Positions 8,255-51,292 of a stretch of DNA of 53,633 nucleotides are shown here, one piece after another. Source of the DNA: Prorocentrum cordatum. Taxonomy: Eukaryota. The DNA lies in the NCBI GenBank assembly GCA_963575745.1, contig CAUYUJ010000306.1, positions 62,001 through 115,633 on the forward strand, read 5' to 3'. How positions within the stretch are numbered: the first letter of the stretch is position 1; each line of letters opens with the position of its first letter. The position numbers were made by a program, and so were the translations under genes. The notes below the pieces were generated by a model. The model searched no databases. It was not told the origin of the DNA and worked only from the letters and a program-made list of their open reading frames with translations.

Positions 8255-8464
8255 GTTAAGTGAGATACGCGTGCACTCAACGGAGGGAGAGGAGGAGAGG
8301 AGGGGACGAGAGAGGGACCAGGACAGGGCGATGGTATTTTCATGGCAGCGTGGCGACGCGCATCTCCGCCTGGGCGTGGGCCCTGATGGCCCACGCTCAA
8401 CGCGAGCGCGTGGGCCCTGACGGCCCGCGCGCTCGCGCTCTGGCACGCCTGCGGCCGCTTGGCC
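8255..8464 (-). repeat. Terminal repeat B2 (210 bp)
   Basis: Direct copy of 8606-8815; its left edge abuts host ...cctccctcc. Confidence 0.95.
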
Positions 8465-8500
8465 GACGCAGGCGTCTGGGAGCAAAGCGGGGTGGGTGGG

Positions 8501-8605
8501 CACCCGCGCGTCGGCCAGAGCCGAACGCTACGGACCCAAAATGGCTACCTGAGCCCACACCCCCTCCCACTTAACCTGCAGTCTACAACCAATCAGACTA
8601 TACAA
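8501..8605 (-). repeat. Internal repeat A2 (105 bp)
   Basis: Direct copy of 23612-23716, abutting B1 at tacaa|gttaag. Confidence 0.95.
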
Positions 8606-8815
8606 GTTAAGTGAGATACGCGTGCACTCAACGGAGGGAGAGGAGGAGAGGAGGGGACGAGAGAGGGACCAGGACAGGGCGATGGTATTTTCATGGCAGC
8701 GTGGCGACGCGCATCTCCGCCTGGGCGTGGGCCCTGATGGCCCACGCTCAACGCGAGCGCGTGGGCCCTGACGGCCCGCGCGCTCGCGCTCTGGCACGCC
8801 TGCGGCCGCTTGGCC
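8606..8815 (-). repeat. Internal repeat B1 (210 bp)
   Basis: gttaagtgagatacg...cggccgcttggcc; no difference from 8255-8464 seen on reading. Confidence 0.95.
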
Positions 8816-9130
8816 ATGAGAAAAAAGTAAACGCAGCCGCGCGCGCGGGGACGCCCAGCCCAAGCGCGAGGGCGGATCCGGAGGCTACAAGAGCCTCGCG
8901 CGCGCGGCCACTTGCCTGCAACCTTGAGGCCTTCCGCGCCCCGCGCACCCAGAGCGCGGGCGCGGCGCGTGCGCGATGCGCGCAAAAGTACCGAAAGGGG
9001 ACGGCGCATGATGCGCCGGGCGCAGAGCGCAAGTGTGGCCCCGACCGCACGGCGCGCAAGACGCGCGGCGCGGCCGGGTCCAGGAAGCACGCGACGTGCG
9101 CGCAACGTTCAAACTCCTCCAAAGAGAGAG

Positions 9131-9239
9131 GATCGCAGGCGCCACCTGCGTACCGTAGGCTAAAAGAAAAAAGATCGCAGGCGCCACCTGCGCACCGTAG
9201 GCTCAAAGGATCGCAGGCGCCACCTGCGCACGGTAGGCT
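9131..9239. repeat. Three 31-bp direct repeats, each with a hairpin, in the element 3' region
   Basis: GATCGCAGGCGCCACCTGCG(C/T)AC(C/G)GTAGGCT at 9131, 9173 and 9209; stem CGCAGG/CCTGCG. Confidence 0.9.
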
Positions 9240-9331
9240 GAGAGGAGGGCCGGCTCACTCACAGGCCGCCGCCTTCAGCCCGCGCCCGCGATGCCGCGGG
9301 CGCTGGCGTCGGGATACGGGGAGCTCCACGC

Positions 9332-11314
9332 CTAGATGGAGGGCGTGTTCCCCTGGCGGTCGCGGCTCTCGTCTCCGCTGCGGTCTCCGCCGCGCTCGCT
9401 GAGGTCCCGGGGGCTGCCGCCATCGCCGCCCCTCGACGCGCGATCGCCCGCGCTGGGCCGGTCACGCTCACTCCGGCCGCGGCTGCCCTGGTCGCCCTTG
9501 GTGTGGCCGCCCTTGCCGCTCTTGTCGCCCTTGCCGCCGCTCTTGGAGCCCTTGGCGGCCTTGCCGGAGTGCTTGCCCTTGACCTTGCCGCCCTTGCCGC
9601 CCTTGTCGCCCGCGCCCTTGCCACGCCAGGCTGGGATCCCACCCCCGCCCGCGGCAGCCTCCGCGGCGGCAGCACGCCGCCGCTTTTTCTCCTGCTCGTA
9701 CCAGCCGCCGCGAGGAGCGCGAAGCTGCCCAGCGTGCTTCCCGGTCTTACGCCGCGCGCGGCCGGGAGGGGTGTCGCCGCGCCGCGCCCACGCTGGGTCC
9801 CGCGCCAGACTGCGGCTGGGCGACCTCTCGCGCTTGGGCCGGTTGCGGCTGGGCGACCTCTCACGCTTGGGCCAGCTGAGGTCGCCTGGCGGGCGGTCCC
9901 CCTCAGCCCCCGCACCCGTGGCACCCGTGCTGGGGCGCTCTCCGTGGCCGGCACTGGGGCCCGGCGCCTCCCGCACGGTGTGGCCGCTCCGCCGGGCCTT
10001 CTCCACCACCGTCTTGGGTTTGCCGAAGGCGACGCGGCAAGCCTCGCAGTAGCTCACGTCGCACCCCTTACAGTGCCACCGCAGGGCTCCGCTGTTAGCT
10101 CCGCCCGCGGGGCACATCTCGCAACCCCAACCGTCTCCCGGGTCAAAGGAGCTCCAGCGCATCTTGAGTGCGCACGTCGGGCAGGCAGGCGGCTGGATGG
10201 TCGGGCCATCCTCCCCGTCGCTGCCTGGGTCAGGGCCGCGAGGTCGGCTCGCCCACTCCGTGACCACCGTGCACGGGTCCGTCTTGTAGAACCGATAGTT
10301 CGACCTCATGCACTCCCGCGCGCGCTTTGCGTCAGCGCGGCGCTGGAACTCCACCAGCACGCACGGCTCCCGCTTGTGGCGGTGGTCGTACAGGAAGGCG
10401 ATGTGTTTGACGACCCCAAAGGGCACGACCACCTGCCTGACCACCTCGGCATCGACGTGGTGCGGTACCCGCTCGATGCGGATGATGGACTCGCCCTCGT
10501 CGTGCTGGTCACTGGGCTGCTGCTGGGCGCCCTGGCGCTGCTCCTCCTTGCGCCTACGGCGGCTCCTCGAGCGCGGCTGGCGCTGGGGCGGACCGTCCCC
10601 CGCGCCTGGCGCCGCCGTCTCCTCCACCTCGGTCTTCACCTCGAAGGACCGCGGCGGCGCCCCCCCGCTCTTGGGCTTCAGGACGGCCTCACGCTTCACG
10701 ATGTCGGCCTTCGGGGGGGCGCCGCCCGTCTTGGGTTTCAAGACGGCCTCCTCCTCCCGTCCCCTGCGCCCGCGATCGCGAGGCTCATCGCGCTCGCGAT
10801 CGCGGCGCCTCGCGCGCGAGGGCGAGCGCAAGGGCGCAGGGCGCCTCTCGCGCTTGCGGACCTCTTCGGCGAGGCGCTCCTGGCCCGGGGACCGCGCGGG
10901 CCGCGGGCGCTCCGCTGGAGCGCCTTTGCTCTGGCGCCGCGCGGCAGCCTGGATGGCCGCACGCGCCAGCGCCGCGGTGACCGCGTCCTCTCCCGGCTCG
11001 AGGACCGGGGCTGGGGTCGACCTCCCCTCGCCCCTGCTCGAGGCGTCGTCCACGTCGGTGAGCTCCACGACCGCCTCTGCGTCCACCGTGCGCATCATGT
11101 CGAGCAGCCCCCTGTTGTGCTTGCAGAGCACGCGGAGCTCCGGCATGGGCTGCCCCTGGAACTGGGCCAGGGCGAGCGCCAGCTTGGCCGCCTGGCGCTG
11201 GACCTTGATATTCGGCCCCGCGCCCACTCCCCACGCGCCCCGCTTGCCGTCGACGATCACCAGCTGGCCGTGGTCCTCGCTCGCCCCCGCGGCCAAGCAG
11301 CCGCCGCGATGCAC
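9332..11314 (-). CDS. Extra element ORF: dsRBD-like motif, RS-rich linker, RRM, ZZ-like Cys finger, RS/KG-rich tail; true start probably ATG 11533 with a frameshift at about 11320
   Basis: WGVGAGPNIKVQRQAAKLALAL; IRIERVP..VVPFGVVKHI..CVLVEFQRRADAKRA; CEMC..RWHCKGCDVSYCEAC; PKRERSPSR twice. Confidence 0.75.
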   Translation of the reverse strand: MHRGGCLAAGASEDHGQLVIVDGKRGAWGVGAGPNIKVQRQAAKLALALAQFQGQPMPELRVLCKHNRGLLDMMRTVDAEAVVELTDVDDASSRGEGRSTPAPVLEPGEDAVTAALARAAIQAAARRQSKGAPAERPRPARSPGQERLAEEVRKRERRPAPLRSPSRARRRDRERDEPRDRGRRGREEEAVLKPKTGGAPPKADIVKREAVLKPKSGGAPPRSFEVKTEVEETAAPGAGDGPPQRQPRSRSRRRRKEEQRQGAQQQPSDQHDEGESIIRIERVPHHVDAEVVRQVVVPFGVVKHIAFLYDHRHKREPCVLVEFQRRADAKRARECMRSNYRFYKTDPCTVVTEWASRPRGPDPGSDGEDGPTIQPPACPTCALKMRWSSFDPGDGWGCEMCPAGGANSGALRWHCKGCDVSYCEACRVAFGKPKTVVEKARRSGHTVREAPGPSAGHGERPSTGATGAGAEGDRPPGDLSWPKRERSPSRNRPKRERSPSRSLARDPAWARRGDTPPGRARRKTGKHAGQLRAPRGGWYEQEKKRRRAAAAEAAAGGGGIPAWRGKGAGDKGGKGGKVKGKHSGKAAKGSKSGGKGDKSGKGGHTKGDQGSRGRSERDRPSAGDRASRGGDGGSPRDLSERGGDRSGDESRDRQGNTPSI

Positions 11315-14301
11315 GGGGCTGCTTCGTGGTCGTGGTTGACCACCTCGACGAGGTCCTCGCTGTCCAGCTCGTTCACCACCGTATACAGGATGTTGTGGGC
11401 GGCACTCCGGAGCTCGTCCGACAGCGCGGCCCCCGAGACGACGACGCCGAGGGGGTTCACCGCCATGATGCTGTAGTCATGGCCGCGAGCCTTGCTCTGG
11501 TCCGGGGCCACCAGGCCCACCAGGAAGCCCATGATGTACGCTGCCGGAGCGCGGGGCGGAGGCGCGGCTGGCGCGCGAGGCTGGGGTGCGCGCGCTGCTC
11601 GCGTGCCTCGCTCTGGAGTGGGAGATGGCTGCGGATGAGAGGACCAAGAGGAGGTGGGCGTGCCTGGGGCGATCGGGGGCGGTAGCGAAAGGGGGGTCGA
11701 GGGCGAGAGGTCCACCGGGATACCCCCACAACGCGAAGCCCCCGCCCTGACCTGAATACCTGTGGGACCCGCCTGCTGCTTCCCCACACGCCCGTTAACT
11801 CCTCGCCCTGGCTCGTATCTCCCCAGCTCCTCCTCTCCTTCCCCCTCCATAGTTGACCCTGCTCGCGCCGAAGGGCGCGCCCAGGGGGGGCGCCCGGGCG
11901 CCCAGGCCGGGCGTTCCGAGGGCCTCAGGTCGCTCCCAAACTGGGGCGGGTCGCTCCCGGCCAACTGGTCGGGGCGGGCGCCGGCCGCGACGCCGTCGTC
12001 ACCGCGGGCGTCCGGGGCCAATAAGGCGCGGCCCTCCGCCATGCCTCGGGCGAATGGAGCCTGACGCCGATGGTCCTCCCAGAGATATCCGTGGAAGGCG
12101 TCCGTGGACCACCTCCCGAACCTCTTGACCGCTTCCAGGTCGCGACAGGCGTGGTACAACGCCGTCGCGCCCCCGATGCGCAGGGAGTGGGATCCCATCT
12201 GGCCTGCGTCCACGCCGCAGGCGGCAGCCGCGAGTTGGAGGAGCCCCTGCACCTCCTCCCGCATAATCGGGTGGCCATCGGGCCGGCGGAACAGGGGGAG
12301 CCCCGCCTCGGTTCCCCGTCCAAAGCGGTCCGGCAGCTCCCTCTGGAGGTCGGCGAGTGCGTCCACGACACACAACTCCACCCCCGAACGGTAATGGTTG
12401 CGTACGCAACCTGCGTTAAACTGGTCCGTCTTGGACGACGTGATCGTCAGTACTACCTCGTCGCAGTCGCTGAGCCTTGCGCTGGGTGTACCCTCGCGCA
12501 TCCCCTGTACGTCCTGCCCACGCACAACCCGTCCCATGCTCCAGGAGCGGCCCTCTTGGACCAAATACTCCGACGCGCGGAGCATGAAGAAGTACCCCGT
12601 CATAAGCGCCGCCCATCGGATGGTCGCCTCTCGGCGCGTGGCCGTTCCGTGGGCGAACAAGTACTCGTGGAGCCAGCGCAACATCCGGGGCGTGGCCGGC
12701 AGCTTCCGTTTCGCCTTTCCGTCCCAGCGGCGGAGTCCCTCGATCGTGGTCCAGAGCCGGCGCCGATCGGAGGTCACATCCCCAAACCCGGCCAGGGTGT
12801 GGGCATATCGAACGGCGAACAGGCGCTGGCGGATGGTCGTGGCCCGCCTCTTCATCACCTTGTACAGGTACACGACATACCGGATGAGGTCATCCTCATC
12901 CGTAAGGCGGGCGTCCCGAGTCTCCCCCTGCAGGTATGGGCTCCGGCCTCGGAGCCTCCGCCAGAGTACCCAGTTACGCCACCCGGCGCTGTAATTGGCC
13001 CGCGTCCCTTCGGCAAGCTTGGCCAGCATCGCCTCGGTGGCGGTCGCATCCAGCTCGCGGGGGTCGGTGAGTTCACCCTGAATCCCTTTCGGGGCGCCCC
13101 CGCCGGCGTACCGCCAGGCGGCGGGCTTCACCAGCGCGGGAGCAGGGGCGCTGCGGGTACGCCGGCGGGCCTTGCGCGGGGGGCGAGCCTCGCCGCCCGC
13201 GCCGTCCGCGGCGCTTGGCCGGGGCATGCCCGCGCCTTCCGGAACAGCGAAGGTCACCGCCCCGACCCGCTCCCCGCCTGCCCCGTCCTCCCCTGCTGCG
13301 GTGGACCGCGCGGTAGCAGGGGGGTCGAGCTGGTCCGCCAACCGAGCGGCGTCGTCCGTCGTCTTACCCGCCTCCAGCGCAGCCTCGAATGGCCCGCTTG
13401 GGCGGTCGGGGGCCTGAAGCCAGGCCTTTAGCCACAGCTTAACCATCTCGTCGTTAGCGAGTCGGTCGTGGTCGGGTCCGACGCCAGCGCGCGCCCCGGG
13501 TGCCTCGCCTGCGCTTGCTGCCTCTACGGCCTGCCTCAGCAGGCGCTCCGCCCACTGGAGCACCCAGCGGGCCGTGCGACGCGGGAGTGCACGAGCGGCC
13601 TGCCGCATGCGCTCGGCGATCGGCATACCTCCAAGGCCCAAGGCATCCCACAGCTCCGCCGTGCCCCCCTGGGCGCACCAGATTTCTTTCGGGTGCAGGG
13701 CTCGCACGGTCCAGCCGCCCTCGGACCCTTCCAGGATCAGGGTGTTCGCATAGCCCTTCAACGGGTCGGGCTTCGCCCGTGCCGTATGGCAGGGCCCGCG
13801 CGGATCATGAATCACCACGCGCTGGGCCCGCCCGCCTCCCGCGGGCTGCCATGTGCCGCGCGGCCAGGGCATCATGCGATCCCCCGTCGTCGAGATCCGA
13901 GGGTCCACGAGCAAGGTGCCGTTGTTGAGGTCCAGGCGGAGCTCATCCAGCGGTGGCCGCCCTGCCTCTTTCCAGAGCTGGCAGAGGCCGCGTGGCTCCA
14001 CGCAGGGCTGCCCCAGGGGGGGTATGGGGCTCGGTGCCCGAACCCGTTCTCCGCAACCCCAAACCTGGACCGCCCGCGCGCGTGCCGTGACGTCGCCGAA
14101 GTGTGTGCACAGAAGGCGCGTCTCCGGGGAGAGTGCCACATAGCCGAGGCGCCGTAAGCGTGCCCCTAGCCGCACTGCGGCGCAGTTGACGGGGGCGTCG
14201 AGCAGCACGGCATAGTGACGCGCACAGCCAGCGGGTCCGCGGGGCCCCAGTGGGGTCCTTGGGGTGGTCCCCGTCGTCCGGGTCCCATCGGTCACCGACA
14301 T
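11257..14301 (-). CDS. Polyprotein continuation: MTase-2 C-terminal half and tyrosine recombinase (about 12040-13040); the ORF tail from 11533 probably belongs to the next gene
   Basis: LAEGTRANY..W (N-terminal domain), YFFMLRASEY (R), SKTDQ (K), HSLRIGGAT (HxxR), GRWSTDAFHGY (W, Y): a complete YR catalytic set. Confidence 0.9.
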   Translation of the reverse strand: MSVTDGTRTTGTTPRTPLGPRGPAGCARHYAVLLDAPVNCAAVRLGARLRRLGYVALSPETRLLCTHFGDVTARARAVQVWGCGERVRAPSPIPPLGQPCVEPRGLCQLWKEAGRPPLDELRLDLNNGTLLVDPRISTTGDRMMPWPRGTWQPAGGGRAQRVVIHDPRGPCHTARAKPDPLKGYANTLILEGSEGGWTVRALHPKEIWCAQGGTAELWDALGLGGMPIAERMRQAARALPRRTARWVLQWAERLLRQAVEAASAGEAPGARAGVGPDHDRLANDEMVKLWLKAWLQAPDRPSGPFEAALEAGKTTDDAARLADQLDPPATARSTAAGEDGAGGERVGAVTFAVPEGAGMPRPSAADGAGGEARPPRKARRRTRSAPAPALVKPAAWRYAGGGAPKGIQGELTDPRELDATATEAMLAKLAEGTRANYSAGWRNWVLWRRLRGRSPYLQGETRDARLTDEDDLIRYVVYLYKVMKRRATTIRQRLFAVRYAHTLAGFGDVTSDRRRLWTTIEGLRRWDGKAKRKLPATPRMLRWLHEYLFAHGTATRREATIRWAALMTGYFFMLRASEYLVQEGRSWSMGRVVRGQDVQGMREGTPSARLSDCDEVVLTITSSKTDQFNAGCVRNHYRSGVELCVVDALADLQRELPDRFGRGTEAGLPLFRRPDGHPIMREEVQGLLQLAAAACGVDAGQMGSHSLRIGGATALYHACRDLEAVKRFGRWSTDAFHGYLWEDHRRQAPFARGMAEGRALLAPDARGDDGVAAGARPDQLAGSDPPQFGSDLRPSERPAWAPGRPPWARPSARAGSTMEGEGEEELGRYEPGRGVNGRVGKQQAGPTGIQVRAGASRCGGIPVDLSPSTPLSLPPPIAPGTPTSSWSSHPQPSPTPERGTRAARAPQPRAPAAPPPRAPAAYIMGFLVGLVAPDQSKARGHDYSIMAVNPLGVVVSGAALSDELRSAAHNILYTVVNELDSEDLVEVVNHDHEAAPCIAAAAWPRGRARTTASW

Positions 14302-14400
14302 CCCACGGCGCTAGCAGCGCCGACCCGCCGAGGCTCTCCCATGCCTCCCCAAAGGGAGGCCACGCGGTTCCCACCTCCAGCAGCCGCGCCCCCTCGACCT
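13570..14400 (-). other. Second, degenerate C5-MTase-like domain split by a frameshift at about 14210
   Basis: LLEVG (motif I-like), VLLDAP (VI-like), LGY..THFGDVTARARAV (VIII-like), VRALHPKEIWCAQG (IX) and RMRQAARALP (X-like). No PC motif visible. Confidence 0.62.
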
Positions 14401-17400
14401 GCAGGGGGGCGTAGCGTGGTAGGGCCTCCCGGGATCCCTTGACTTGGAGTGCAGCCGCGCGCCAGGGCCCGTCGTCTCCTGGCATCCGCAGCTCGCGCTG
14501 GGCGGCCTCCTCCACCAGCTCGCCCCACGGTGCTGCCGGCGACAGCTCGGTCCATCCGGCCTCCGCCATCCGCTGGCGTACCTCCTCCACCGTGGCACGA
14601 GTAATGAAGTCGGCCAGCTCGCTCCCGTCCAGGACCCGGAACTTGTACCGTAGCTCCAGCATGGCCAGGACTCGAAGCAGGTGGCGCGCCACCGCGTTCC
14701 GTGCCCGGCGGCGTCGCAGCCAGCGGCTGACGTTACTGTTGTCAGTGACGTACGGCAATAGCAGCTGGAACCAGTCCGGGCCCTTCTCGGCCGCCAAGGC
14801 TATCAGGCAGAGGAGTTCGACCACCGCGATGATCTCCCCCTCCCCCTGCCAGGTGACCCCAGGGGCGGAGCGGAGCGTCTCCAGATAGGGAGCCGCCTCC
14901 GCCACGATGTACTCGCGCGAGGACCAGTCCAGCGCACCGATCCGATCCAGGGTGGCATCGCCTCCCAGCCAGCGCAGCTTGCCGAGCGCCCCCGGGAGTG
15001 CGAGGGCCTCGCGAAGGCCTAGCAGGCCCTCGAAGGAGGTCTCGAAGTTACCCTCGACCGGCATCTCAAAGCAGACGCGCAGCCAATCCAGGGTCTGGTG
15101 CCAATCGTCCCACGCAGCCTCTACCATCTCGGGGTCGCCCGGCGGATGGACGTAGGCCTGACCTGGGTCACCCGACAGCATCCGGTGGACCGCTGGGAGC
15201 TCCAGGCTCAGGGCTGGAGCTGCGCAGGCGCAGAACTGGCCGAGCCCACTTAGCTCCCTCGCGGTTCGCAGCCGGACCATGCGGCAGCCGAAGCTCAGCT
15301 CCGGCTCCGCCAGTAGGAAGCGCATCTTCATGGCCTTGGGCTCCGGGAGTCCAACTCGCTCGCGCTCGAAGTCCATACTGAGCCCCCAGATAATCTGCGT
15401 GGTGGAAGGCTCCCCCTCGGCGTCCCTCTTGCTGACGTTCACTGCTTCGGACCCAAACACCTCACGTATGGAGGCATCCAATGCGTCGCAGGCCATCCAC
15501 GGCCGGACCCCAATGTCGGGCTCCACCACCACAGGGTCATCCATAAGCCACTCCGAGTGGAAGTGGGTGGTGTCGTGCCAGTGCGGCTCCCCAGGCCGAT
15601 AGCTCTCGTGGAGCTCCCTCGCCGCCAGGGCGAGCATCATGTAATTGCCTGGGGCTCCCGTCCACCCAAACACCATGGCTAGGTAAACGACTCTGACGTC
15701 CCCCTCGATGCCAGCGTGGGCCCCCGGTAATGAAGTGCCAAAGTCCCCGACGTCCGCCGGGGCGATGTCCAGCCACTTGAAGGCCCGCGAGACGTCCCGC
15801 TTGGCGCAGAGGAGGCGCGCTCCGGGGTGGCGCGCGCGATGCCATACCGCCGTCCTCACCACCTGCCGATGGCGTGGCTGGACGGCAGGCGGGTGGTCGC
15901 GCTTGTGTGTGGCGGCGTTGGCCGAGAGCATCGCGTGGATCATACGCCCTTCGGACGATAAGGTTCTGTCCGGTAGCTGCTTCGGGACCCTCCCCAGGGG
16001 GGCTTCCACCAGCTCCGTCAGAAAACCCTCTGCCGCCTGGGAAGCCACCAAGACGATCCCCCAGGTCACATCCGCCCATACCTTCTGGTAGGCCTCGTCG
16101 ATGTGGGCTCGCACGCTGGGGTACGGCTGGGCTCGCTCGCGCCTCCGCGGCGCGCCCCGCCGCGCGGAGGCTCCCCCTTCCGCTAGCTCCCGGACGTACT
16201 CGAAGTGCTCTCGGCTTAAACACCGTCGCACCTTGTCCCCCAGGACACCCCGAAGGGGGTTGCCCAGGCGCTCGTGGCGCGCGCGCCTAAGCAGCGCGGC
16301 CGCTTCCTTCAGGGACCCCGTCCGCTGGAGGAGCTGATCCCCCAGCCCCACCAGGGTCCGCATGGCTTCGGGGTCGTACTCAGGGTGCTCCGTGCAGAAG
16401 GTCAGGTAGACCGTGGCCAGCTCCGCCGGGCTGCACCCGTCGAGGTCCTCCGCGATATCTCTGGCCGGATCCTCGCAAGGGGGTCGAGTCTTGCCCGCAC
16501 TCACCTCCCCCTGTGCCTTGCCCAATGGGGGCTTAGGAAGCCCCGCCAATGCTCGGTGCATGGCTGGGCTAAGCCTACCGCATTTTGAGCCGTCCCCTGA
16601 GGCCTGTAGGCGCTCGATTCCAGTGAAGTCGACGCCCTGCAGGCGCCCGGGCGCCTCCGCCCGGGCGATTTTGGGGGACGCCCCCGGGCCATCCTCCCAT
16701 ATAGGCGCCAACTGCCGACGCAGTTGGCTCACCGACCAGCGGTGATAGGCCCCTTTCAACACCTTTGCCCACGCAGCGCAAAGGCGGGGGGCCCAAACCT
16801 GCGCCTCCTTGGTGCGCTTAATGCCCGAGCCCGGCACGTGATCTTTCAGCTCGACGTGGTGGTGGTCACGGGGGCAACGTCGCGCCAGCAACAGAGCGTG
16901 CAGGTACAGCCGGGGGCTGACGAGCCACCAGCTGCCCTTGCGATAGCGGCTCTCTGGCGCGTCGGACGGGGCCTTACCCCAGGCGCACATGTGGATCGGG
17001 ACGATCATGGCCCCCGTCGCTCGACGCAGCTCGTGCATCGGGGCCTGGTCCCAAATCTTGGGGTAGCGGCCCGAGGGGCAGGAGGACTCGATGAGAAACT
17101 CCTTGCCAGCGTCGTGTAGGATGCGGCAGGTGTCGCACGTGAACTGTGTGTGGCTGTTACCCACGCGCTCGAACTCTTTGGAGCCATCCCCCTCGGGGTG
17201 CTCCCACGTGCGGGTGCCCTGCGGGGTCCCGCCCGGCTGGGTCATGAGCCCGAGGTCGGTGTACGAGCCACACGGGGTACCCCAGCACCAAACGTTGGCC
17301 ACGTCGGGGCCCATGGGGGTCCGTGCGGCCTCCTGTAGGCGCGCGCGAACCGCTGGGTCGAGGGTGTCATGATCCGGCCGTGGGCCGGACTCTCGGAGAG

Positions 17401-20029
17401 GGTCGTCGTAATATTCGATCGGCTCCAGCACCCGGATGCCCTCGGCGCGAAGCGCGGCCGACCAATTTCCCGAACCGGCGTACACCTCTTGGGCGATCAA
17501 ACCGTACGCGAACGCGGGATCGTGTCGAATCGGCATCGCGTTCGCCTCCAGGAGGCGTGCCTGGACGTCGGCTGGATGTTCCCCGAACGAGGCTGGCGCG
17601 CGTCCCACTGCGCGGCCCGCCCGACCTTCCGCTGCCTTGCAGTGGGTGCAGGGCGCGCTCTTGCCCGGGACGGTGGGTTCAACGTCTGGGCCTTCGTCGA
17701 GCATCTCGCGCCAGCCGACACTTACGATCTCGCGGGACAGGCGTCCTGCGTGCCCCCAGCGCTGGCCTAGGGCCGCCGCCTCCGCGTGGGAGCGTGGGCG
17801 CAAGGCGCGCATATGGCCACGCCAGATCAGGAGCGGAATTACCTGATCCTCCGCGCCGACACCCGTTCCCATTAGGTGGTCCACGCATAGGCGCCCACTG
17901 CCGTTGACACGGTGCACCTGGAGCGTGACGGCGTCGAGGTCGGTGACGGGGCATGCTGCCAGGCAGCGATAGTCCTTGTCGTGGTGCGGGTGCACCGCAT
18001 CATGGACGTAGGAACGGACATCGGCCTCCAGGGCCGTGATCCACGGTGGGGAGTCGCCCAGGGCACGAAGGGCCTCATGGGCCTCCTCCCATAGTGCATG
18101 GCGATACGTCGCGGCCAACTGCTGCACCGCGTCCGGGCTGGGCTCACCTGTGCCCTCGCCCGCGCGTAGCAGGAGCACCCCCGCAGCTACGTGCAGTAGC
18201 AGGCACTGCCGCTCCTCGGCGTCGCCCATCTCCAGGCCCATCGCCTGGCCCATCTCCTCTGTAGGGCTGAGGCGGTCCCGGTAGTCGATGAAGTCCCACT
18301 GGATGCGGGTGTCCCCGTCCCAGAAGGTATAGGACCCGCGGCCTATCAGCCCGTCGGTGTCCCACGCAACCGGGCCAACCTCGGCCCCGCCCTCGGTGAC
18401 GTATCCTGCGGCGCAGCTAAGCGCCTCATGCAGGTCGGCTGCCTCGCTGCTGAGTCCCCGATGGCCTCGGTCCACGGCTTCCTCCAGGGCTCGCTCCAAG
18501 GTGAGCCGCTCCCCGCGCAGGCGCGCCCCCAAGACGCGCCCGCGCACGTGGCTCTGCAAGTACTCGCTGGCCCCCTTCAGAGGAGCGAAGATGCCCTCGG
18601 ATTCGAGCTCCTGCATGAGTTTGAGGCGAAGCTCCGGCCCATCACCCGCGGGCTGGGCGCCCCAAGTGGCCGCCGCGCGCGGGCGGTCATGGTCTTCGAG
18701 CCATCCGAAGTCGGGGCCCTTAACCGCTTCCCGGAGGTCAGATTCCATCGCGGTAAGCTGGAGCGCGGTGTAGTCGTCCGGGGCCTGCCCCGGGCCCGGG
18801 TCGCCCGCTGCTCGCGAGCCGCTGCCACGGCCACGGCCCTTCTCCTTCTGGGAGTCAGGGGCAGCAGGTGGGGAAGTGTCCTCGCCAACCTTCTCGGCCT
18901 CGGCTGCCTTGGCTTGCGAGCGCAGCTGCGCAATCATCCCATCCACCTGCTTGGGGTCGATCCGGGGCGTCCCAAGGAGCCCCCCGCGCCTCGTGAGCTG
19001 CATGACTACCGAGTAGTCCAATCCGCGCGTGGACTTGATGGGGTCATGGGAGTTAGGGCAATCGCAAGCCTTCCGCGAGCAGCCCATGTGCGTGGTGGCC
19101 CCCCAGCAGATAGGGACGTTGTCCTTATTGCGGGGCGCATGCGCCACGGATCGCGTACGCTCCGGGCGTGTTAGTTCCTTGCCCGCTGGGTACGCCCTCT
19201 TGGGGGCTGTCCCCGCTGGGGCCCCGGTGCCCGCCTTGGGCCCCGCCTTCGGCTGGGGTCCAGCCCCCGCCTTGGGCCTGTCATCCCCCTGCGCCGTGGG
19301 CCGGGGCTCGCCCATTTCCTCGCTCCCTCCCGCCTTGGGCGGTCGCTTCGTGAGGTGGGCGTTCAGCTGCCCATTGAGAAGGCGCGTGAGTGCGGCCTTG
19401 CGCCGGGGCACGACCACCTGCTGGTAGTAGGCGTTCGGGTCCCCGAGGTCGAACGTTCGGGGCAAGTCGTAGCCGTTCTCCGGCATGAGTAGGATGTACT
19501 TGATGTCCTCCCTCCTCGGGTTCTCGGTGTCGAGCTCTCGGCAGAGCCGACGCCTCAGCTCCCGTAACTCCTCGACCCAGGTGCTTCGGAGCTCTTCCCA
19601 CAGATCCTTGACCCAATGGTCTGGGAACTCCGAGGGGTCCCTCTCGAAGGCCGCCTCCAAGAACCCTAACGACCGCCGACGCTCCGCCCCATGTGCGACC
19701 CCTACGATGGACTCGAACATCTGGATCTCGCACCGGGCCCTCTTAAACCAGGTCGCCATGTGGGTGGCGGGCCGCTGGCGGGGCTCCAGCTTGTCGTCCA
19801 CAGGGAGCCGATAGCCATCGAAGTCCTCGTCACGCGCGGGGACGCAGTCGTCCACCGCCAGGTCGTGAGGGCCCGTCCCGAAGGCGAGCGCCGCGTAGCC
19901 GTGCGCCACACGGCTGGTAACCAGGCAGGGAAACCCGATCGTCTTGAGAGTGCTCTTGGAGTGCGCACACATGCGCTTGAGAGAGTCGAACAAGTCCTTC
20001 CCCGTAATCCCCTCGCAGGCCTCAACCAC
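13943..20029 (-). CDS. Polyprotein: gag-like/CCCH finger, candidate Cys protease, C5-MTase, reverse transcriptase, RNase H, start of second MTase
   Basis: 2028-aa ORF. CWGATTHMGCSRKACDCPNSH; EVYAGSG/GTPCG/FLIES; KRDVSRAF, MVFGWTGAP, LMDD; GDAT..VEL..VTDN..ADFITR. Confidence 0.9.
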   Translation of the reverse strand: MVEACEGITGKDLFDSLKRMCAHSKSTLKTIGFPCLVTSRVAHGYAALAFGTGPHDLAVDDCVPARDEDFDGYRLPVDDKLEPRQRPATHMATWFKRARCEIQMFESIVGVAHGAERRRSLGFLEAAFERDPSEFPDHWVKDLWEELRSTWVEELRELRRRLCRELDTENPRREDIKYILLMPENGYDLPRTFDLGDPNAYYQQVVVPRRKAALTRLLNGQLNAHLTKRPPKAGGSEEMGEPRPTAQGDDRPKAGAGPQPKAGPKAGTGAPAGTAPKRAYPAGKELTRPERTRSVAHAPRNKDNVPICWGATTHMGCSRKACDCPNSHDPIKSTRGLDYSVVMQLTRRGGLLGTPRIDPKQVDGMIAQLRSQAKAAEAEKVGEDTSPPAAPDSQKEKGRGRGSGSRAAGDPGPGQAPDDYTALQLTAMESDLREAVKGPDFGWLEDHDRPRAAATWGAQPAGDGPELRLKLMQELESEGIFAPLKGASEYLQSHVRGRVLGARLRGERLTLERALEEAVDRGHRGLSSEAADLHEALSCAAGYVTEGGAEVGPVAWDTDGLIGRGSYTFWDGDTRIQWDFIDYRDRLSPTEEMGQAMGLEMGDAEERQCLLLHVAAGVLLLRAGEGTGEPSPDAVQQLAATYRHALWEEAHEALRALGDSPPWITALEADVRSYVHDAVHPHHDKDYRCLAACPVTDLDAVTLQVHRVNGSGRLCVDHLMGTGVGAEDQVIPLLIWRGHMRALRPRSHAEAAALGQRWGHAGRLSREIVSVGWREMLDEGPDVEPTVPGKSAPCTHCKAAEGRAGRAVGRAPASFGEHPADVQARLLEANAMPIRHDPAFAYGLIAQEVYAGSGNWSAALRAEGIRVLEPIEYYDDPLRESGPRPDHDTLDPAVRARLQEAARTPMGPDVANVWCWGTPCGSYTDLGLMTQPGGTPQGTRTWEHPEGDGSKEFERVGNSHTQFTCDTCRILHDAGKEFLIESSCPSGRYPKIWDQAPMHELRRATGAMIVPIHMCAWGKAPSDAPESRYRKGSWWLVSPRLYLHALLLARRCPRDHHHVELKDHVPGSGIKRTKEAQVWAPRLCAAWAKVLKGAYHRWSVSQLRRQLAPIWEDGPGASPKIARAEAPGRLQGVDFTGIERLQASGDGSKCGRLSPAMHRALAGLPKPPLGKAQGEVSAGKTRPPCEDPARDIAEDLDGCSPAELATVYLTFCTEHPEYDPEAMRTLVGLGDQLLQRTGSLKEAAALLRRARHERLGNPLRGVLGDKVRRCLSREHFEYVRELAEGGASARRGAPRRRERAQPYPSVRAHIDEAYQKVWADVTWGIVLVASQAAEGFLTELVEAPLGRVPKQLPDRTLSSEGRMIHAMLSANAATHKRDHPPAVQPRHRQVVRTAVWHRARHPGARLLCAKRDVSRAFKWLDIAPADVGDFGTSLPGAHAGIEGDVRVVYLAMVFGWTGAPGNYMMLALAARELHESYRPGEPHWHDTTHFHSEWLMDDPVVVEPDIGVRPWMACDALDASIREVFGSEAVNVSKRDAEGEPSTTQIIWGLSMDFERERVGLPEPKAMKMRFLLAEPELSFGCRMVRLRTARELSGLGQFCACAAPALSLELPAVHRMLSGDPGQAYVHPPGDPEMVEAAWDDWHQTLDWLRVCFEMPVEGNFETSFEGLLGLREALALPGALGKLRWLGGDATLDRIGALDWSSREYIVAEAAPYLETLRSAPGVTWQGEGEIIAVVELLCLIALAAEKGPDWFQLLLPYVTDNSNVSRWLRRRRARNAVARHLLRVLAMLELRYKFRVLDGSELADFITRATVEEVRQRMAEAGWTELSPAAPWGELVEEAAQRELRMPGDDGPWRAAALQVKGSREALPRYAPLQVEGARLLEVGTAWPPFGEAWESLGGSALLAPWDVGDRWDPDDGDHPKDPTGAPRTRWLCASLCRAARRPRQLRRSAARGTLTAPRLCGTLPGDAPSVHTLRRRHGTRAGGPGLGLRRTGSGTEPHTPPGAALRGATRPLPALERGRAATAG
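14595..14975 (-). other. RNase H domain (DIRS type), short near its C-terminus
   Basis: WLGGDAT, IAVVELL, VTDNSNV..W, ADFITR give the D-E-D-D arrangement. Confidence 0.82.
15370..16010 (-). other. Reverse transcriptase domain (DIRS/YR type)
   Basis: GRMIH, CAKRDVSRAFKW, LAMVFGWTGAPG, WLMDD (15536-15547), IIWGLSMD. Confidence 0.9.
16760..17500 (-). other. C5 cytosine DNA methyltransferase domain 1
   Basis: Motif I EVYAGSG (about 17470-17490), motif IV WGTPCGS with Cys codon at 17270-17272, motif VI-like FLIESS, motif VIII-like MCAWG..YRKGSWW, C-terminal C..HHH..L..T..AQVWAPRLC. Confidence 0.82.
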
Positions 20030-23000
20030 GAAGGTGTTGCATCCCTAAGTTCCTCGTCCCGACCGATCCCTGCCCTGGTGCCCCGGGCCTTCTTGTCGCC
20101 CTCGGTGGCCCGCGCCTGCCGCTCGGCGGCGAGGACGTGGCGCTCGGTGAGGCGGTTCTGGCGATCCAGGCGCTCGATGATCTGGGCTTCGGCCTCGGCT
20201 GCAAGCCCGCCCAGGGCGCCCGCCGCCCCGGCGTCGTCTGGACCCCCAGCTCGCTCCCCACCCAGGCCGCCCCCGTGGGCCGTCTGGCCAGTGAGGTGGC
20301 CAAGGACCGAGGCCCCGTCGAGGAGCGGGTTGGCCCCACGAGCGGCCCCCCCGCGTCCATCGCGTGCCGACAGGCCCCGATCACCCAGCAGGCCCCGTCG
20401 TGGGCCCGTGGGTTGGATGGGGGGCATGGCCCCGAAGAGCTCGCGTCGGGGCCCCTGCTTCGGGCTGGGATCCCGTCCCCGCGCCGAGCGACTCCGCGAC
20501 CCCTCGCGTGAGAGGCTGCCCTGCAGGGGAACCTTGTCGGCGGCCGCAGCACGCTCCCGCGCGCGCGCTTCCAGCTGCGCATCCTCCAAATCCGCGAGGG
20601 CGCGCTCCAGATCGGACCCCAGTGGGCCCGCCGCTGCCACCTGTGCGACTCTCCGCCGCAGCTGCCGTTCCGCCTGATCAAGCGGAACCCCGAGCAGGTC
20701 CGCGGTCATACCTAATGCGCTGAGGGCCGCCGCTTGGCCCCCCCGTCCTTTGAGATCCTCGGCTCGCAAGGAATCCATGAATACTTCGAGGGGGTCGGGC
20801 TCCTCAGCGTCCTCGCTCACGCCGGCGGCGGCCGCCGCCAAGCGCGACGGTGCCGCCACGGGGGCTGGGCGGGGCAGGCCCTCCATCCCGGGCGCAGGCT
20901 GCGCCCCCTGCGCGCCGCCCCGCCGATGGTGGCCGAGTGTGCGCACAGGGTCGTGCTGCAGCTGCTGGCGCTCCGTGTTTGTCAGGTAGCGCCGCCTCCA
21001 GCCGCTCGCGCTTTCCACGCCCACACCGTCCCACTGCTCCTGGCGTAACATCGCCAGCAGATCCTGCGGGATGCGGTGGGCGATGACACGCAACCCCACT
21101 TCCCGCGCGCCCTGGGGGACCTCGTACAGCAGCCGATTGATCCAATCTATCGGGTAGCGCCCGTCCTCCAGCGGAGGGGGGTGCCGTACGACCTCGCTGG
21201 CTGGGACCTCCACCCTGACGCCCTCGAGGCTAGTCCCGATGATAAGTCGTGCGTCCCCGCCAGTGCCCCGTACGTCGAGCCCCTCGCATTCTCCCAATAG
21301 AATATACCAAGGACTCGCCGGGGGCGCGCCGTACGCCTCCTCGGCTCCCCGAGGGTCGCCCGGGAGTATCGGGCAGACCTTCACGAGTAAGGGCTCCTGA
21401 AGCCACCCGTGATGGGCGATCCGATCGCCCGGGGCTCCGCGGTCGGCAGACCGTGAGCGTCCGCTGGCCCTTGCTTCCGCGGAGCGTGTGCGACGCGGCT
21501 GCGGCCCAGAGGCTAGGGCCTGCACCCCCGAGGGCTCCACATCGACGGATGGGGCCACGGCGGGCGGTGGCGGTGCAGCGGGCGGGGGGTAGACCGGCCC
21601 GGGCGCTATGCCAACCCCATCGGCGGCATGCGCGGTCCAATCGCGCGCCCTGGCGGGGCTTGGAGCCCGCACCCGCATGCGGCGGCGCAGGCCCCCGAGG
21701 ATCCCAGGTTGGACCGTCGCTTCGACGCGCACGGTGTGACCCTCGTCCCGTCGGAGATGTTCCCCGCACATCGGGGCCCCCCCGCAGCTACCCTTCGCCA
21801 TGCGGAGACAAGTGGGGAGGCTGCACTTGCGGCCGATCAGGGTAGACCGATACTTCTGCGCATGGTGGGCGCAGAGGTGCACCTGTGCATTGAGACAATG
21901 CCCCGGCCGGGGGACGTCCGACACCTCCGCGTCCTCCTGTAGCAGAACAGTAGCCTCCTGCATCCCTCGGTCGCCGCACCCCTCCGGCTGGAGGGGGCGT
22001 GCGCCACCCGCGAGCTGCACCCCAACTTGTGCGGCTTGGCAGGGGCGCTCCTCCGCCTCCACCTCGCTCTCCGAATCGATGTCCAGGCGGCGATAACCCG
22101 TGGCGTCGGTGATGTAGCGGGGCTCCGGCCGGCCCCGGCACAGCCATCCAAGTACCGACCAGGGTGAGCAAAGCAACCACTTGAGGACCCCGAATACCTT
22201 CCGGAGTCCCACGCCGACTGCCCGGCAGGCTGTGGCCTTTCCGTGCTCAGCCAAGTCCACGATCTGTGTGTGGTCAATGGCCGCGTACTGGTCGACATGC
22301 ATGGGATGCGCCACTGGACAGGAGGCGCACTCGACGGCACGGCATAGATGCACGTTCCCTGTCTCCTCGAGGTTCAGCCGCCACTTGCGACTGGTGCACC
22401 CCAGTACCTGCCCGATCTTGATGTTGAGCCCGTGGCGGTCCAGTCGGTACCGGTCCGCGAAGTTGCAGCTGATGCGGGCCACCTGCCCGTGCTTCCGCAG
22501 AAGCACGTGGTTGTACGCCCGATTGGTCCCTCGGCCGCGGACCCCCTTTGTGTAGAACTCCGTCTCCACCACGCCTCCCAAGCCCGGCCCGCGCCAGCGC
22601 ACCAGCAAGGGAGTCGGAGGGGGTGGGGGCAGATGGGCGCCGGGCCCATCGCCTCCGCGTCGCTGGCAGCACCGGGTAATCTGGTACCACGCCCAGCGGA
22701 GTCCCCCGGCTGCCCAGAGCATAGGCTGGGCTGCGGTGTTGACGATGAAGGCCAGGGCACCCAACACGAACGTGAAGATGCCTAGGGAAAAGCATAGGAC
22801 CGCGGTCTCCCACCAGTACCCAAGCATATTAACGCCCAGGCGGTCGACGGCGGATCCAATCCATCCGCCACTCGTGCGGATCGTGCCCGCGTGGTCGGGG
22901 GAGCTTACCCACGCTCCGTAGCCCACGAACTCGAAGACCCAGGCTGCGAATCCCCAACCGGGACCCAGCCCCGCCTCCGGGGGCGGGGTAGGTGGCGGCG

Positions 23001-23538
23001 GAGGCGGTGGGGGCACGTTCCGGCCAGCCCACCAATGGGGCAGGTGCGGGACCCAACCACTCCACCCCCAATACCCGTCCAGCCCGCGCGGCGGGTCAGG
23101 CTCGCCATCGCCCGTCCGGTTTCCCGGGGCGGACGGCTGCCCAGGCGCACCCGTGGGCTCGTTGTTACCTCCGTATGCCGGCGTAGCTGGGCTGCCCGTG
23201 GGCTCGCCCTCGCCTACGCGCCCGATGCCCGCGGGCGTGGTCGTTGTAGTCGACCCTGACCGCGGCGGCACAGGGACGCCCGGCGTCCCCGGGGGCTTGG
23301 CCTGCGGCCCTCGCCCCTTTCCCCCTGCAGGCGCGGGCTTGGCGGGCGGTCCTCGCCCCTTGCCTCCCCCCCCACCGCCTGCCGGCAGCGCTGTCGGCCC
23401 GGGCAGGGCTGGCGGCGTCGGTGCTGGGACCTCCTGTCCCCCGCGCCCGAACGGCAGCCAGCCAAGCGCCCCTTGGACCGTGAGAGCACCGCCCGTAACC
23501 AAGATCATCAGGTGTGCTCCCAGGAAGCCCACAGCCAT
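19702..23538 (-). CDS. Retroelement ORF1 / N-terminal polyprotein part with hydrophobic (putative TM) segments, Cys/His clusters and coiled coil; probably meaningful only to about 20045, then shifted into the pol frame
   Basis: 1278-aa ORF whose ATG is 74 nt inside A1. Hydrophobic stretches MAVGFLGAHLMILVTGGALTVQGALGWL and AVLCFSLGIFTFVLGALAFIV; Cys/His clusters HLCRAVECASCPVAHPMH and HLCAHH..CSLPTC..CGEH. Confidence 0.75.
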   Translation of the reverse strand: MAVGFLGAHLMILVTGGALTVQGALGWLPFGRGGQEVPAPTPPALPGPTALPAGGGGGGKGRGPPAKPAPAGGKGRGPQAKPPGTPGVPVPPRSGSTTTTTPAGIGRVGEGEPTGSPATPAYGGNNEPTGAPGQPSAPGNRTGDGEPDPPRGLDGYWGWSGWVPHLPHWWAGRNVPPPPPPPPTPPPEAGLGPGWGFAAWVFEFVGYGAWVSSPDHAGTIRTSGGWIGSAVDRLGVNMLGYWWETAVLCFSLGIFTFVLGALAFIVNTAAQPMLWAAGGLRWAWYQITRCCQRRGGDGPGAHLPPPPPTPLLVRWRGPGLGGVVETEFYTKGVRGRGTNRAYNHVLLRKHGQVARISCNFADRYRLDRHGLNIKIGQVLGCTSRKWRLNLEETGNVHLCRAVECASCPVAHPMHVDQYAAIDHTQIVDLAEHGKATACRAVGVGLRKVFGVLKWLLCSPWSVLGWLCRGRPEPRYITDATGYRRLDIDSESEVEAEERPCQAAQVGVQLAGGARPLQPEGCGDRGMQEATVLLQEDAEVSDVPRPGHCLNAQVHLCAHHAQKYRSTLIGRKCSLPTCLRMAKGSCGGAPMCGEHLRRDEGHTVRVEATVQPGILGGLRRRMRVRAPSPARARDWTAHAADGVGIAPGPVYPPPAAPPPPAVAPSVDVEPSGVQALASGPQPRRTRSAEARASGRSRSADRGAPGDRIAHHGWLQEPLLVKVCPILPGDPRGAEEAYGAPPASPWYILLGECEGLDVRGTGGDARLIIGTSLEGVRVEVPASEVVRHPPPLEDGRYPIDWINRLLYEVPQGAREVGLRVIAHRIPQDLLAMLRQEQWDGVGVESASGWRRRYLTNTERQQLQHDPVRTLGHHRRGGAQGAQPAPGMEGLPRPAPVAAPSRLAAAAAGVSEDAEEPDPLEVFMDSLRAEDLKGRGGQAAALSALGMTADLLGVPLDQAERQLRRRVAQVAAAGPLGSDLERALADLEDAQLEARARERAAAADKVPLQGSLSREGSRSRSARGRDPSPKQGPRRELFGAMPPIQPTGPRRGLLGDRGLSARDGRGGAARGANPLLDGASVLGHLTGQTAHGGGLGGERAGGPDDAGAAGALGGLAAEAEAQIIERLDRQNRLTERHVLAAERQARATEGDKKARGTRAGIGRDEELRDATPSWLRPARGLRGRTCSTLSSACVRTPRALSRRSGFPAWLPAVWRTATRRSPSGRALTTWRWTTASPRVTRTSMAIGSLWTTSWSPASGPPPTWRPGLRGPGARSRCSSPS

Positions 23539-23611
23539 GGCACCACAGGCGCGCTACCTAGTCCGCGGACCAGCACGGCTGTGGTTATGGCCGCCCCGCG
23601 GCCCCCTGGAA

Positions 23612-23716
23612 CACCCGCGCGTTGGCCAGAGCCGAACGCTACGGACCCAAAATGGCTACCTGAGCCCACACCCCCTCCCACTTAACCTGCAGTCTACAAC
23701 CAATCAGACTATACAA
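23612..23716 (-). repeat. Terminal repeat A1 (105 bp) of the YR retroelement
   Basis: cacccgcgcg...cagactatacaa matches 8501-8605 with one mismatch seen (gttgg vs gtcgg). Confidence 0.95.
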
Positions 23717-51218: not shown

Positions 51219-51292
51219 CTTCATCGAAGCATCTGGAACCAAAGAGACACCGGACCATGGGGTCTGGTTCATCCGCCGCCCCATGTGATTCA

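Follow-up and report, generated by a model that had tools for sequence, protein, structure and literature searches.

Analysis of a 53,633-nucleotide (nt) stretch of the Prorocentrum cordatum genome (GenBank assembly GCA_963575745.1, contig CAUYUJ010000306.1, positions 62,001 to 115,633; hereafter, the window, in whose plus-strand numbering coordinates are given) indicates that its minus-strand segment 8255-23716 is, most probably, one young, slightly decayed copy of a giant split-direct-repeat retrotransposon of the DIRS order that encodes an eight-part polyprotein. In the relatives of this element, the polyprotein consists of a membrane module, a CCCH zinc finger, an OTU-like fold, C5-cytosine methyltransferase fold 1, reverse transcriptase (RT), RNase H, C5-cytosine methyltransferase fold 2 and tyrosine recombinase, in that order. 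What is new is the set of extra accessory domains, added to a known DIRS-order plan near that of the SymbioDIRS elements; the clade is large and poorly annotated.

Terminal repeats and insertion site

The element, 15.5 kb long, fills 8255-23716 exactly. Comparison of the window with itself shows that 8255-8464 and 8606-8815 are 100% identical over 210 nt, and that 8501-8605 matches 23612-23716 over 105 nt (99%, a single mismatch). Read in the direction of the element, the order is A1 (23716-23612), coding region, B1 (8815-8606), A2 (8605-8501), a 36-nt spacer (8500-8465) and B2 (8464-8255). B1 adjoins A2 directly, without a gap, and the sequence of the B1-A2 joint is what joined element ends would give. 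A preliminary description of this DNA, made from the sequence, had proposed A1-coding-B1-A2-B2 termini, and its exact coordinates are borne out by the repeat comparison and by a paralogous empty site. The same A...B-A-spacer-B layout is found in L002, a related metagenome contig of 15,819 nt and 68% G+C, in which A at 45-139 recurs at 15540-15634, B at 15327-15445 matches 15701-15819, and the spacer is 66 nt long.

The empty site is provided by the host sequence. The element lies within one unit of a ~1.8-kb tandem repeat, and the neighbouring unit is intact. The left flank matches at 94% between 8162-8254 and 25404-25496 (83% over the longer stretch 7373-8254 versus 24568-25496), the right flank 23717-23981 matches 25530-25812 at 83%, and the flanks join at ~25496/25497 within a (TCC)n run. 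Because the flanks align up to and from this paralog, both ends of the element are fixed at 8255 and 23716. The insertion is clean by this comparison, with no demonstrable target-site duplication; the (TCC)n run leaves a 3-nt duplication possible. The insertion is young, given that the paired repeats differ at only 1 position in 315 nt. No second copy of the element is present inside the window. The units of the host repeat (6844-8254 plus 23717-24035 versus 24065-25848) are ~80-94% alike and combine AT-rich arrays of microsatellite-like 8-nt units with a GGCACCCG-type array and a (TCC)n tract.

The terminal features and the empty site are:

23612-23716, minus strand: A1, 5' terminal repeat, 105 nt, 99% identical to 8501-8605, with the outer edge set by the empty-site paralog
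8255-8815, minus strand: 3' repeat block B1-A2-spacer-B2, from the repeat comparison, with the layout also found in L002
25404-25671, no strand assigned: paralogous empty site in the next host-repeat unit, from the flank alignments

A single-frame polyprotein in the relatives

The coding region of the window copy is read from four long stop-to-stop frames on the minus strand, P0001 (23553-19702), P0002 (20044-13943), P0003 (14310-11257) and P0004 (11476-9332). The first Met is at 23538, behind a 178-nt leader, most of which is A1. The expectation that intact copies encode one very long polyprotein proved correct in the relatives: L002 has a stop-free frame of 4,871 amino acids (aa), and P0026 and P0028 are single-frame proteins of 3,961 and 3,959 aa, respectively. 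In local BLAST comparisons, the longest relatives, such as P0026 and P0028, span P0001, P0002 and P0003 in order within one protein. The parts of the polyprotein are located as follows:

21646-23538, minus strand: N-terminal membrane module (hydrophobicity scan; alignment to relatives)
20047-21645, minus strand: low-complexity, poorly conserved linker (P0001 aa ~640-1170, no alignment to relatives)
18401-20044, minus strand: conserved region without a recognised fold, and CCCH-type finger (alignment to relatives)
17672-18400, minus strand: predicted OTU-like cysteine protease fold (P0002 aa 549-791; predicted structure)
16733-17581, minus strand: predicted C5-cytosine methyltransferase fold 1 (P0002 aa 822-1104; predicted structure)
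15100-16423, minus strand: putative RT (motif reading; 44-57% identity to relatives)
14324-15099, minus strand: putative RNase H (motif reading)
13411-14395, minus strand: predicted C5-cytosine methyltransferase fold 2 (fold from the relative L002, to which the window was aligned)
12019-13053, minus strand: tyrosine recombinase (P0003 aa 420-764; Pfam Phage_integrase; 49-54% identity to relatives)

In P0026, P0028, P0007, P0045 and L002, a single frame carries the membrane module, the OTU fold and the two methyltransferase folds in the same order as in the window element (27-53% identity). A protein database search with P0002 returned 15 proteins with 35-54% identity, and a search of 1.84 billion cluster representatives (50% clustering) with P0002 aa 520-1700 found 1,638 proteins at E<=1e-3, including 170 at E<=1e-30. 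By our count, the best-matching stretch of 53 of the 150 listed proteins lies in the part containing the OTU fold and methyltransferase fold 1, before the RT. Because of the single-frame relatives and of these matches ahead of the RT, the extra regions are considered to be family-wide coding sequence and not debris.

All named relatives come from Suessiales dinoflagellates, namely, Durusdinium trenchii, Polarella glacialis, Symbiodinium sp. Y106, Symbiodinium sp. CCMP2592 and S. natans, and no related loci were found in prokaryote genome contigs. The sole near-identical fragments, P0135, P0136, P0162 and P0166 (92-96% identity over 73-82 aa), carry the EukProt label of a green alga, Pyramimonas sp. 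CCMP1952. The contrast between this label and the dinoflagellate origin of the deeper relatives may have its cause in a broad host range, in horizontal spread, or in a fault of labelling or culture. Sequencing runs in which the stretch occurs are for the most part marine metagenomes, pointing to a G+C-rich marine protist as host.

The OTU-like fold and methyltransferase fold 1

An AlphaFold model of P0002 aa 520-1170 (m1dbbd687fe80; window 16535-18487, minus strand) was built from a 51-row alignment, with a mean predicted local distance difference test score (pLDDT) of 87.7. When compared using VIA-align, which is independent of Foldseek, model residues 30-272 matched SnOTU (Z 8.5, 150 residues aligned), OTUD3 (Z 8.1, 136/141), Cezanne (Z 7.9) and TRABID (Z 7.9). 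The candidate catalytic residues are Cys614 (18203-18205) and His744 (17813-17815). Among relatives that cover the column in question, all 20 have Cys614, 31 of 32 have His744 and all 26 have Asp691; this conservation supports the OTU reading. The domain is thus predicted to adopt an OTU fold with the catalytic Cys and His conserved in sequence, which gives a family to the candidate cysteine protease of the preliminary description. The Pfam OTU family (PF02338) was not detected in this domain of the window element.

For the following domain, the top Foldseek matches in the PDB are all C5-cytosine DNA methyltransferases (DIM2, DNMT1, M.HhaI and DNMT3A; E ~2e-4). VIA-align of model residues 303-585 gave M.HhaI as the best match (Z 11.6, 208 residues aligned, root-mean-square deviation (rmsd) 4.0), followed by DNMT3A (11.4), DNMT3B (11.3) and DIM2 (11.3). 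The motif residues are Gly857 of motif I, the Pro924-Cys925 pair and Glu986 of motif VI; among the relatives covering each column, the Gly is conserved in 31 of 31, the Pro in 30 of 37, and the Cys and the Glu in 35 of 38 each. The alignment extends over 208 of the 327 residues of M.HhaI, and no separate target-recognition domain is evident. As modelled, fold 1 looks catalytically competent and devoid of an evident DNA-reading domain. The corresponding Pfam family, PF00145, had no match at E<=0.1 in the window frames and none at E<=0.01 in 13 close relatives; the only match is in a more distant relative, P0150, after RT-RNase H. In the viral structure library BFVD, most matches to the same model are cytosine methyltransferases of double-stranded DNA viruses (e.g., Tetraselmis virus 1).

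Methyltransferase fold 2 and the slot after RNase H

The second methyltransferase-like region is damaged in the window copy, and its structure was modelled on the intact relative L002 (11779-12639). The mean pLDDT of the whole model is 58.9, with a core of ~65-92 over residues 145-410. Foldseek matched this model to M.HhaI with E 6e-12 and a template-modelling score of 0.66-0.68 on the target, and VIA-align gave Z 20.5 for M.HhaI (265/327 residues aligned, rmsd 3.3), 19.5 for M.MpeI and 17.4 for M.HaeIII. The best 19 structural matches, all with Z>=11.3, are C5-cytosine methyltransferases, and the match covers the whole bacterial-type enzyme including the target-recognition domain. In the alignment of this region, the glycines of the S-adenosylmethionine loop are kept and Asp takes the place of the motif VI Glu. 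No Pro-Cys is found at the motif IV-like position; a nearby Cys is present in 3 of the 13 sequences covering it, and the motif IV-like stretch of the window frame P0002 has one Cys and no Pro-Cys. Judging from the model and these residues, fold 2 looks catalytically dead but equipped with a DNA-recognition domain. The two methyltransferase-like domains that had been noticed on either side of RT-RNase H both appear, then, to be C5-cytosine folds, the second being cut by a deletion in the window copy.

We considered, and rejected, the possibility that the two regions are halves of one split enzyme: each alone gives a full Rossmann-type C5 match. A homologue search with the fold 2 region alone found no protein. 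An hhalign comparison of A6 with A5 (whole polyproteins) aligned fold 1 to itself only and is uninformative on the paralogy of the folds, and a predicted complex of fold 1 and fold 2, both from L002, scored 0.00, which is no evidence either way.

The slot after RT-RNase H has varying content. In the window's family it is occupied by fold 2, in sister subfamilies by an RNA 2'-phosphotransferase, Tpt1/KptA, and in P0150 by the domain matching the PF00145 DNMT family. No Dam-type Pfam family was matched in the window frames or the relatives scanned, and the positive evidence points to a predicted C5 fold at this slot, although the lack of Dam-type enzymes among the structural matches is no proof in itself. 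The sister subfamilies with Tpt1/KptA are represented by P0041, P0054, P0063, P0074 and P0247, with PF01885 matches at E 3e-28 to 3e-11; P0247, a 4,761-aa protein of Symbiodinium natans and a cluster-mate of P0057, was recognised by its label, 'kptA', not by a Pfam scan. Tpt1/KptA in retrotransposons was not found in the open-access literature. One of these proteins, P0054 (3,511 aa, Symbiodinium sp. CCMP2592), carries a glycosyl hydrolase family 28 domain at its C-terminal end (E 7e-42) and is probably a chimeric gene model running from the element into a host gene.

Putative reverse transcriptase and RNase H, and the tyrosine recombinase

The putative RT was read from its motifs: Asp1417 would belong to motif A, and the pair Asp1502-Asp1503 to motif C. 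All 10 sequences compared have Asp1417 and Asp1502, and at least 90% have Asp1503. The four acidic residues of the putative RNase H, Asp1696, Glu1743, Asp1768 and Asp1812, are likewise invariant (10 of 10), and their assignment to a DEDD set is our reading. The Pfam families RVT_1 and RNase_H gave no match up to E 5, and ESM Atlas provided leads only (0.85-0.87), to RVT_1 and RT_RNaseH clusters. The reading also draws on a remark in the accessible text of the SymbioDIRS study that the RTs of Symbiodinium DIRS elements escape the Pfam seed (PMC5890265).

The tyrosine recombinase is recognised by Pfam, with a weak Phage_integrase match in the window (E 0.0023) that recurs in 8 relatives with E values down to 1.1e-5 and 1.9e-5; all these scores fall below the Pfam cut-off. 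No DDE-type integrase family was matched by Pfam in the frames or the relatives. One frame holds both the RT and the recombinase in L002, P0026, P0028, P0007 and P0018. The three enzymes named in the preliminary description, RT, RNase H and recombinase, are all retained in our reading.

The N-terminal half

The membrane module begins with a signal-like hydrophobic stretch (aa 6-24) and continues through a Pro-rich part of low complexity to a transmembrane segment. A poly-Cys run comes next, and then a conserved region rich in Cys and His. Putative transmembrane segments had been suggested; the scan yields one strong hydrophobic segment, at P0001 aa 252-270 (22744-22800; Kyte-Doolittle peak 2.51), directly ahead of the poly-Cys run. 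Of the 5 sequences scanned, 3 (those of the window, P0026 and P0045) show a peak above threshold at the corresponding position, and the aligned stretch is hydrophobic but below threshold in L002 and P0011. P0001 aa 195-636 is 31-39% identical to P0026, P0011, P0045 and L001-L003. The module matched no Pfam family and had no usable match in ESM Atlas, and no relative of it was found outside the clade.

Beyond the linker, P0002 aa 1-545 is 41-43% identical to P0026, P0007, P0018 and P0011, and its conserved N-terminal region matched no Pfam family. The CCCH finger, with the spacing C-x8-C-x6-C-x3-H, lies at P0002 aa 313-333 (19046-19108), as read from the translation and the alignment. From its sequence, the P0002 aa 1-545 region is a candidate for the nucleic-acid-binding, Gag-like part of the polyprotein.

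Frame breaks in the window copy

Compared with its relatives, the window copy has three frame-breaking deletions, because of which the full protein cannot be made from this copy as assembled:

20043-20047 (~20045), minus strand: frame break 1, loss of one base from a G run (three-frame reading against P0018 and P0045; coordinate set by hand)
~14211-14213, minus strand: frame break 2, ~70 nt missing (alignment to L002 and three-frame reading)
~11299, minus strand: frame break 3, one base missing in the downstream gene ORF2 (comparison with its homolog P0194)

Relatives read through the region of frame break 1 in a single frame. Frame break 2 shifts the frame and takes ~23 residues out of fold 2, from the stretch that separates its motif IV-like position from its motif VI-like one. 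Programmed frameshifting at the three breaks was considered and rejected: relatives read through, a conserved domain is hit by one of the breaks, and P0194 has the intact reading at another. The lesions may have arisen by recent decay or been inherited as defects; the two single-base losses could also be assembly errors.

A broader version of the last explanation, in which errors of assembly or base-calling account for all three breaks and an intact, autonomous copy exists in the genome, is unlikely. In its favour, two of the breaks are losses of just one base, the first within a run of G, and the DNA has a G+C content of ~70%; the terminal repeats are almost identical, and P0194 has an ORF2 without the break. 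However, a loss of ~70 nt inside a conserved domain is untypical of base-calling, P0194 is just 96% identical and hence represents another copy or strain, and a repeat divergence of 1 position in 315 nt leaves room for a few indels to have arisen across 15 kb since insertion.

ORF2, a downstream gene for a predicted RNA-binding protein

Downstream of the polyprotein, two further features were identified:

9332-11532, minus strand: ORF2, separate gene, ~729 aa (comparison with P0194; Pfam RRM_1)
9121-9246, minus strand: tandem repeat of a 42-nt unit x3 in the 3' untranslated part (copies 79-88% identical)

ORF2 contains an RNA-recognition motif (RRM; 10301-10483), a B-box/ZZ-like zinc finger (10031-10123) and Arg/Ser- and Lys/Gly-rich tails. 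The RRM_1 match (E 8e-5, 22.8 bits) is above the Pfam cut-off of 20.7, and the weak PDB matches are all RRM proteins. An intact ORF2 is present on another contig as P0194, a 729-aa protein that is 96% identical. The start Met of P0194 lies in the P0003 frame (window 11532), and the protein then continues in the P0004 frame, for which reason ORF2 is considered a separate gene downstream of the recombinase. A reading of the ORF2 N-terminus as a double-stranded-RNA-binding domain was dropped, having no Pfam support at E<=1.

P0194 is the sole other ORF2-like protein found. A tblastn search with ORF2 had no match in any of 16 related loci, of which only L002 and L003 reach more than 1 kb past the recombinase; in L002, there is just ~1.25 kb between the recombinase and B1. 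The separate RNA-binding ORF of the preliminary description thus stands for this element but may not be family-wide, and ORF2 appears to be specific to the lineage of the window element. Short tandem repeats between the last ORF and B1 are also found in L002 (80-nt units x2, 15012-15170).

Neighbouring loci

Elsewhere in the window, an ORF fragment at 38079-39131 (minus strand) has a clear Pfam RVT_1 match (E 2.5e-14) and belongs to a different, conventional retroelement. An ORF at 50272-51312 (minus strand) has protein-kinase matches (Pkinase, E 3e-10) and is probably a host-gene exon.

Proposed mechanism

Under the model for DIRS, Ngaro and PAT elements, a transcript running from A1 to B2 would be reverse-transcribed, the internal B1-A2 joint would template the bridging of both ends, giving a closed or joined complementary DNA (cDNA), and the tyrosine recombinase would insert this cDNA without a target-site duplication. 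We infer the enzymatic roles of the accessory domains only from their folds and conserved residues. The OTU domain most likely cuts the giant polyprotein, given that no aspartic protease is present, and may also remove ubiquitin-like tags. Because its catalytic Pro-Cys and Glu are kept, fold 1 is likely an active cytosine methyltransferase, and its substrate would be the new cDNA, in line with the proposal made for SymbioDIRS-Dnmt3. For fold 2, DNA binding or a helper role alongside fold 1 is probable. Membrane anchoring would fall to the N-terminal segment, and RNA binding to ORF2.

Opposing evidence and alternative explanations

Several results weigh against a giant DIRS-order element with this domain set. 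The RT and RNase H are assigned from motif reading and context, and an hhalign comparison of the RT alignment with the RT fragment of the conventional retroelement in the window gave no match (probability 0.3). Detection of domains by sequence, with Pfam run on the four frames and 36 relatives, misses the RT, the OTU domain and the methyltransferase folds, and phmmer and profile searches against PDB sequences returned nothing for the extra domains. The OTU Z scores of 7.9-8.5 are 'middling' on VIA-align's own scale. Fold 2 was modelled in a relative that is only ~26-33% identical over the second-methyltransferase region, with the low whole-model pLDDT given above, and is truncated in the window. 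Finally, ORF2 is absent from L002 and L003. Set against these points are the exact ends of the element, the single-frame relatives and the structural matches of the OTU fold and both C5 folds.

A far-reaching interpretation would make the clade a distinct lineage with a virus-replicase-like, membrane-tethered protein, in which the OTU domain performs self-cutting and removes ubiquitin-like tags, and the methyltransferases form a catalytic and DNA-reading pair, in the manner of DNMT3A-DNMT3L, that methylates the cDNA so that it passes as host DNA; modules would be swapped at the slot after RNase H, and elements would move between dinoflagellates and a prasinophyte. Taken as a whole, we regard this scenario as unlikely.

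It is also quite improbable that an endogenous retro-transcribing virus, or an agent resembling one, underlies the clade in place of a purely intracellular transposon, with the membrane module serving as an envelope or a membrane-replication anchor and the combination of OTU and methyltransferase domains mirroring an RNA-virus replicase. Features compatible with this possibility are the conserved transmembrane segment with the poly-Cys run at the very N-terminus and an OTU-type protease embedded in a giant polyprotein. Long BFVD alignments of the model m1dbbd687fe80 to nege-, virga- and cile-like replicase ORF1 were also obtained (best E 8.9e-7), but these are geometrically poor (rmsd >25 Å) and unreliable. 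The nearest fragments being labelled as green algal, and the deeper relatives being dinoflagellate, could mean spread between hosts, although the label could be a labelling or culture issue. On the opposing side, neither a capsid nor a fusion-protein fold turned up, recognisable relatives of the N-terminal module are missing from Pfam and ESM Atlas, and the insertion looks like ordinary DIRS-type integration. The term 'virus-like', used in the preliminary description, remains a description, not a finding.

Least probable by far is the explanation that the extra domains are private to this copy, acquired via nested insertions or host-gene capture: ORF2 is without a counterpart in related loci, with one other such protein found, but the collinearity of the polyprotein domains in one frame in P0026, P0028, P0007, P0045 and L002 excludes this for all domains except ORF2, and ORF2 lies inside the repeats and is present in a second copy.

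Viewed as a DIRS-order retrotransposon, the element and its relatives are ~3x larger than the usual tyrosine-recombinase elements and are fused into one protein of up to ~4,900 aa. Their 'dark' accessory domains, seen solely by structure prediction, have probably been overlooked in genome annotation, where one relative is labelled 'kptA' and others 'unnamed protein product'. With 1,638 representatives, the clade is abundant enough to matter for the annotation of dinoflagellate and other algal genomes. It offers testable material on the handling of host DNA methylation by retroelements, with a catalytic and a non-catalytic C5 fold in one protein; on an OTU protease replacing the aspartic protease in the processing of a retroelement polyprotein; and on the exchange of accessory modules at a fixed slot after RNase H.

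Comparison with known elements

Tyrosine-recombinase retrotransposons are usually 4-7 kb long and encode gag, RT/RNase H, recombinase and at most one accessory domain. PAT-like and Ngaro elements, of ~4-7 kb, have separate gag, pol and recombinase ORFs, and their methyltransferase is of the Dam-like (adenine) type; in PAT and DIRS1, the accessory methyltransferase slot follows RNase H. The window element resembles PAT-like and Ngaro elements in its A1-internal-B1-A2-B2 termini, in the order of putative RT-RNase H followed by tyrosine recombinase and, as far as the (TCC)n run allows this to be read, in having no evident target-site duplication, and differs in the spacer between A2 and B2 (36 nt, and 66 nt in L002). 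It shares with PAT and DIRS1 an accessory methyltransferase slot after RNase H, but the fold predicted there is of the C5 type.

OTU-type proteases are found in arteri-, nairo- and tymoviruses, and the tymovirus and arterivirus OTU domains cut the polyprotein and remove ubiquitin. OTU domains are also known in the DNA transposon Ginger1 and in some Helitrons, according to the accessible text of the source (PMC2836005). In all these cases, as predicted for the window element, an OTU-fold cysteine protease is embedded in a large protein of a mobile element or virus; unlike the window element, neither Ginger1, nor the Helitrons, nor the OTU-bearing RNA viruses are retrotransposons.

EpiLTRs, as presented in part of the preprint describing them, are Ty3/Gypsy-like long terminal repeat elements that encode one adenine and one cytosine methyltransferase along with a chromodomain (bioRxiv 10.64898/2026.05.21.726589). 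On this description, EpiLTRs and the window clade both have two DNA-methyltransferase-type domains per retrotransposon polyprotein, whereas the window clade consists of tyrosine-recombinase elements with two predicted C5 folds, one of which is without the catalytic Cys.

The preliminary description did not recognise the combination of domains from described families. The architecture as a whole was not found in the open-access literature searched, nor was a tyrosine-recombinase retrotransposon with an OTU domain, a membrane module or two C5 methyltransferases; elements with a single DNMT, SymbioDIRS-Dnmt3 of Symbiodiniaceae, are already in print. According to the accessible text of the 2018 paper, SymbioDIRS-Dnmt3 elements have A-coding-B-A-B repeats and an RT missed by Pfam, their Pol includes a Dnmt3-type domain that Pfam does detect, the recombinase has its own ORF, and there are two variants with different domain order (de Mendoza et al. 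2018, PMC5890265). The window element has in common with them the A-coding-B-A-B repeats, a divergent RT, a predicted cytosine methyltransferase domain inside Pol and a tyrosine recombinase, and the hosts overlap, given that its named relatives come from Symbiodiniaceae and Polarella. In contrast to the one DNMT per element in that text, the window clade has two Pfam-cryptic C5 folds flanking RT-RNase H, and the recombinase, a separate ORF in SymbioDIRS-Dnmt3, is fused in the Pol frame in the relatives. Beyond the features given for SymbioDIRS-Dnmt3, the window clade has the membrane module, the CCCH finger, the OTU fold and a far larger size (~15.5 kb). SymbioDIRS-Dnmt3 elements are the closest described ones, and the window clade is clearly akin to them and, by the text of the 2018 paper, set apart from them.

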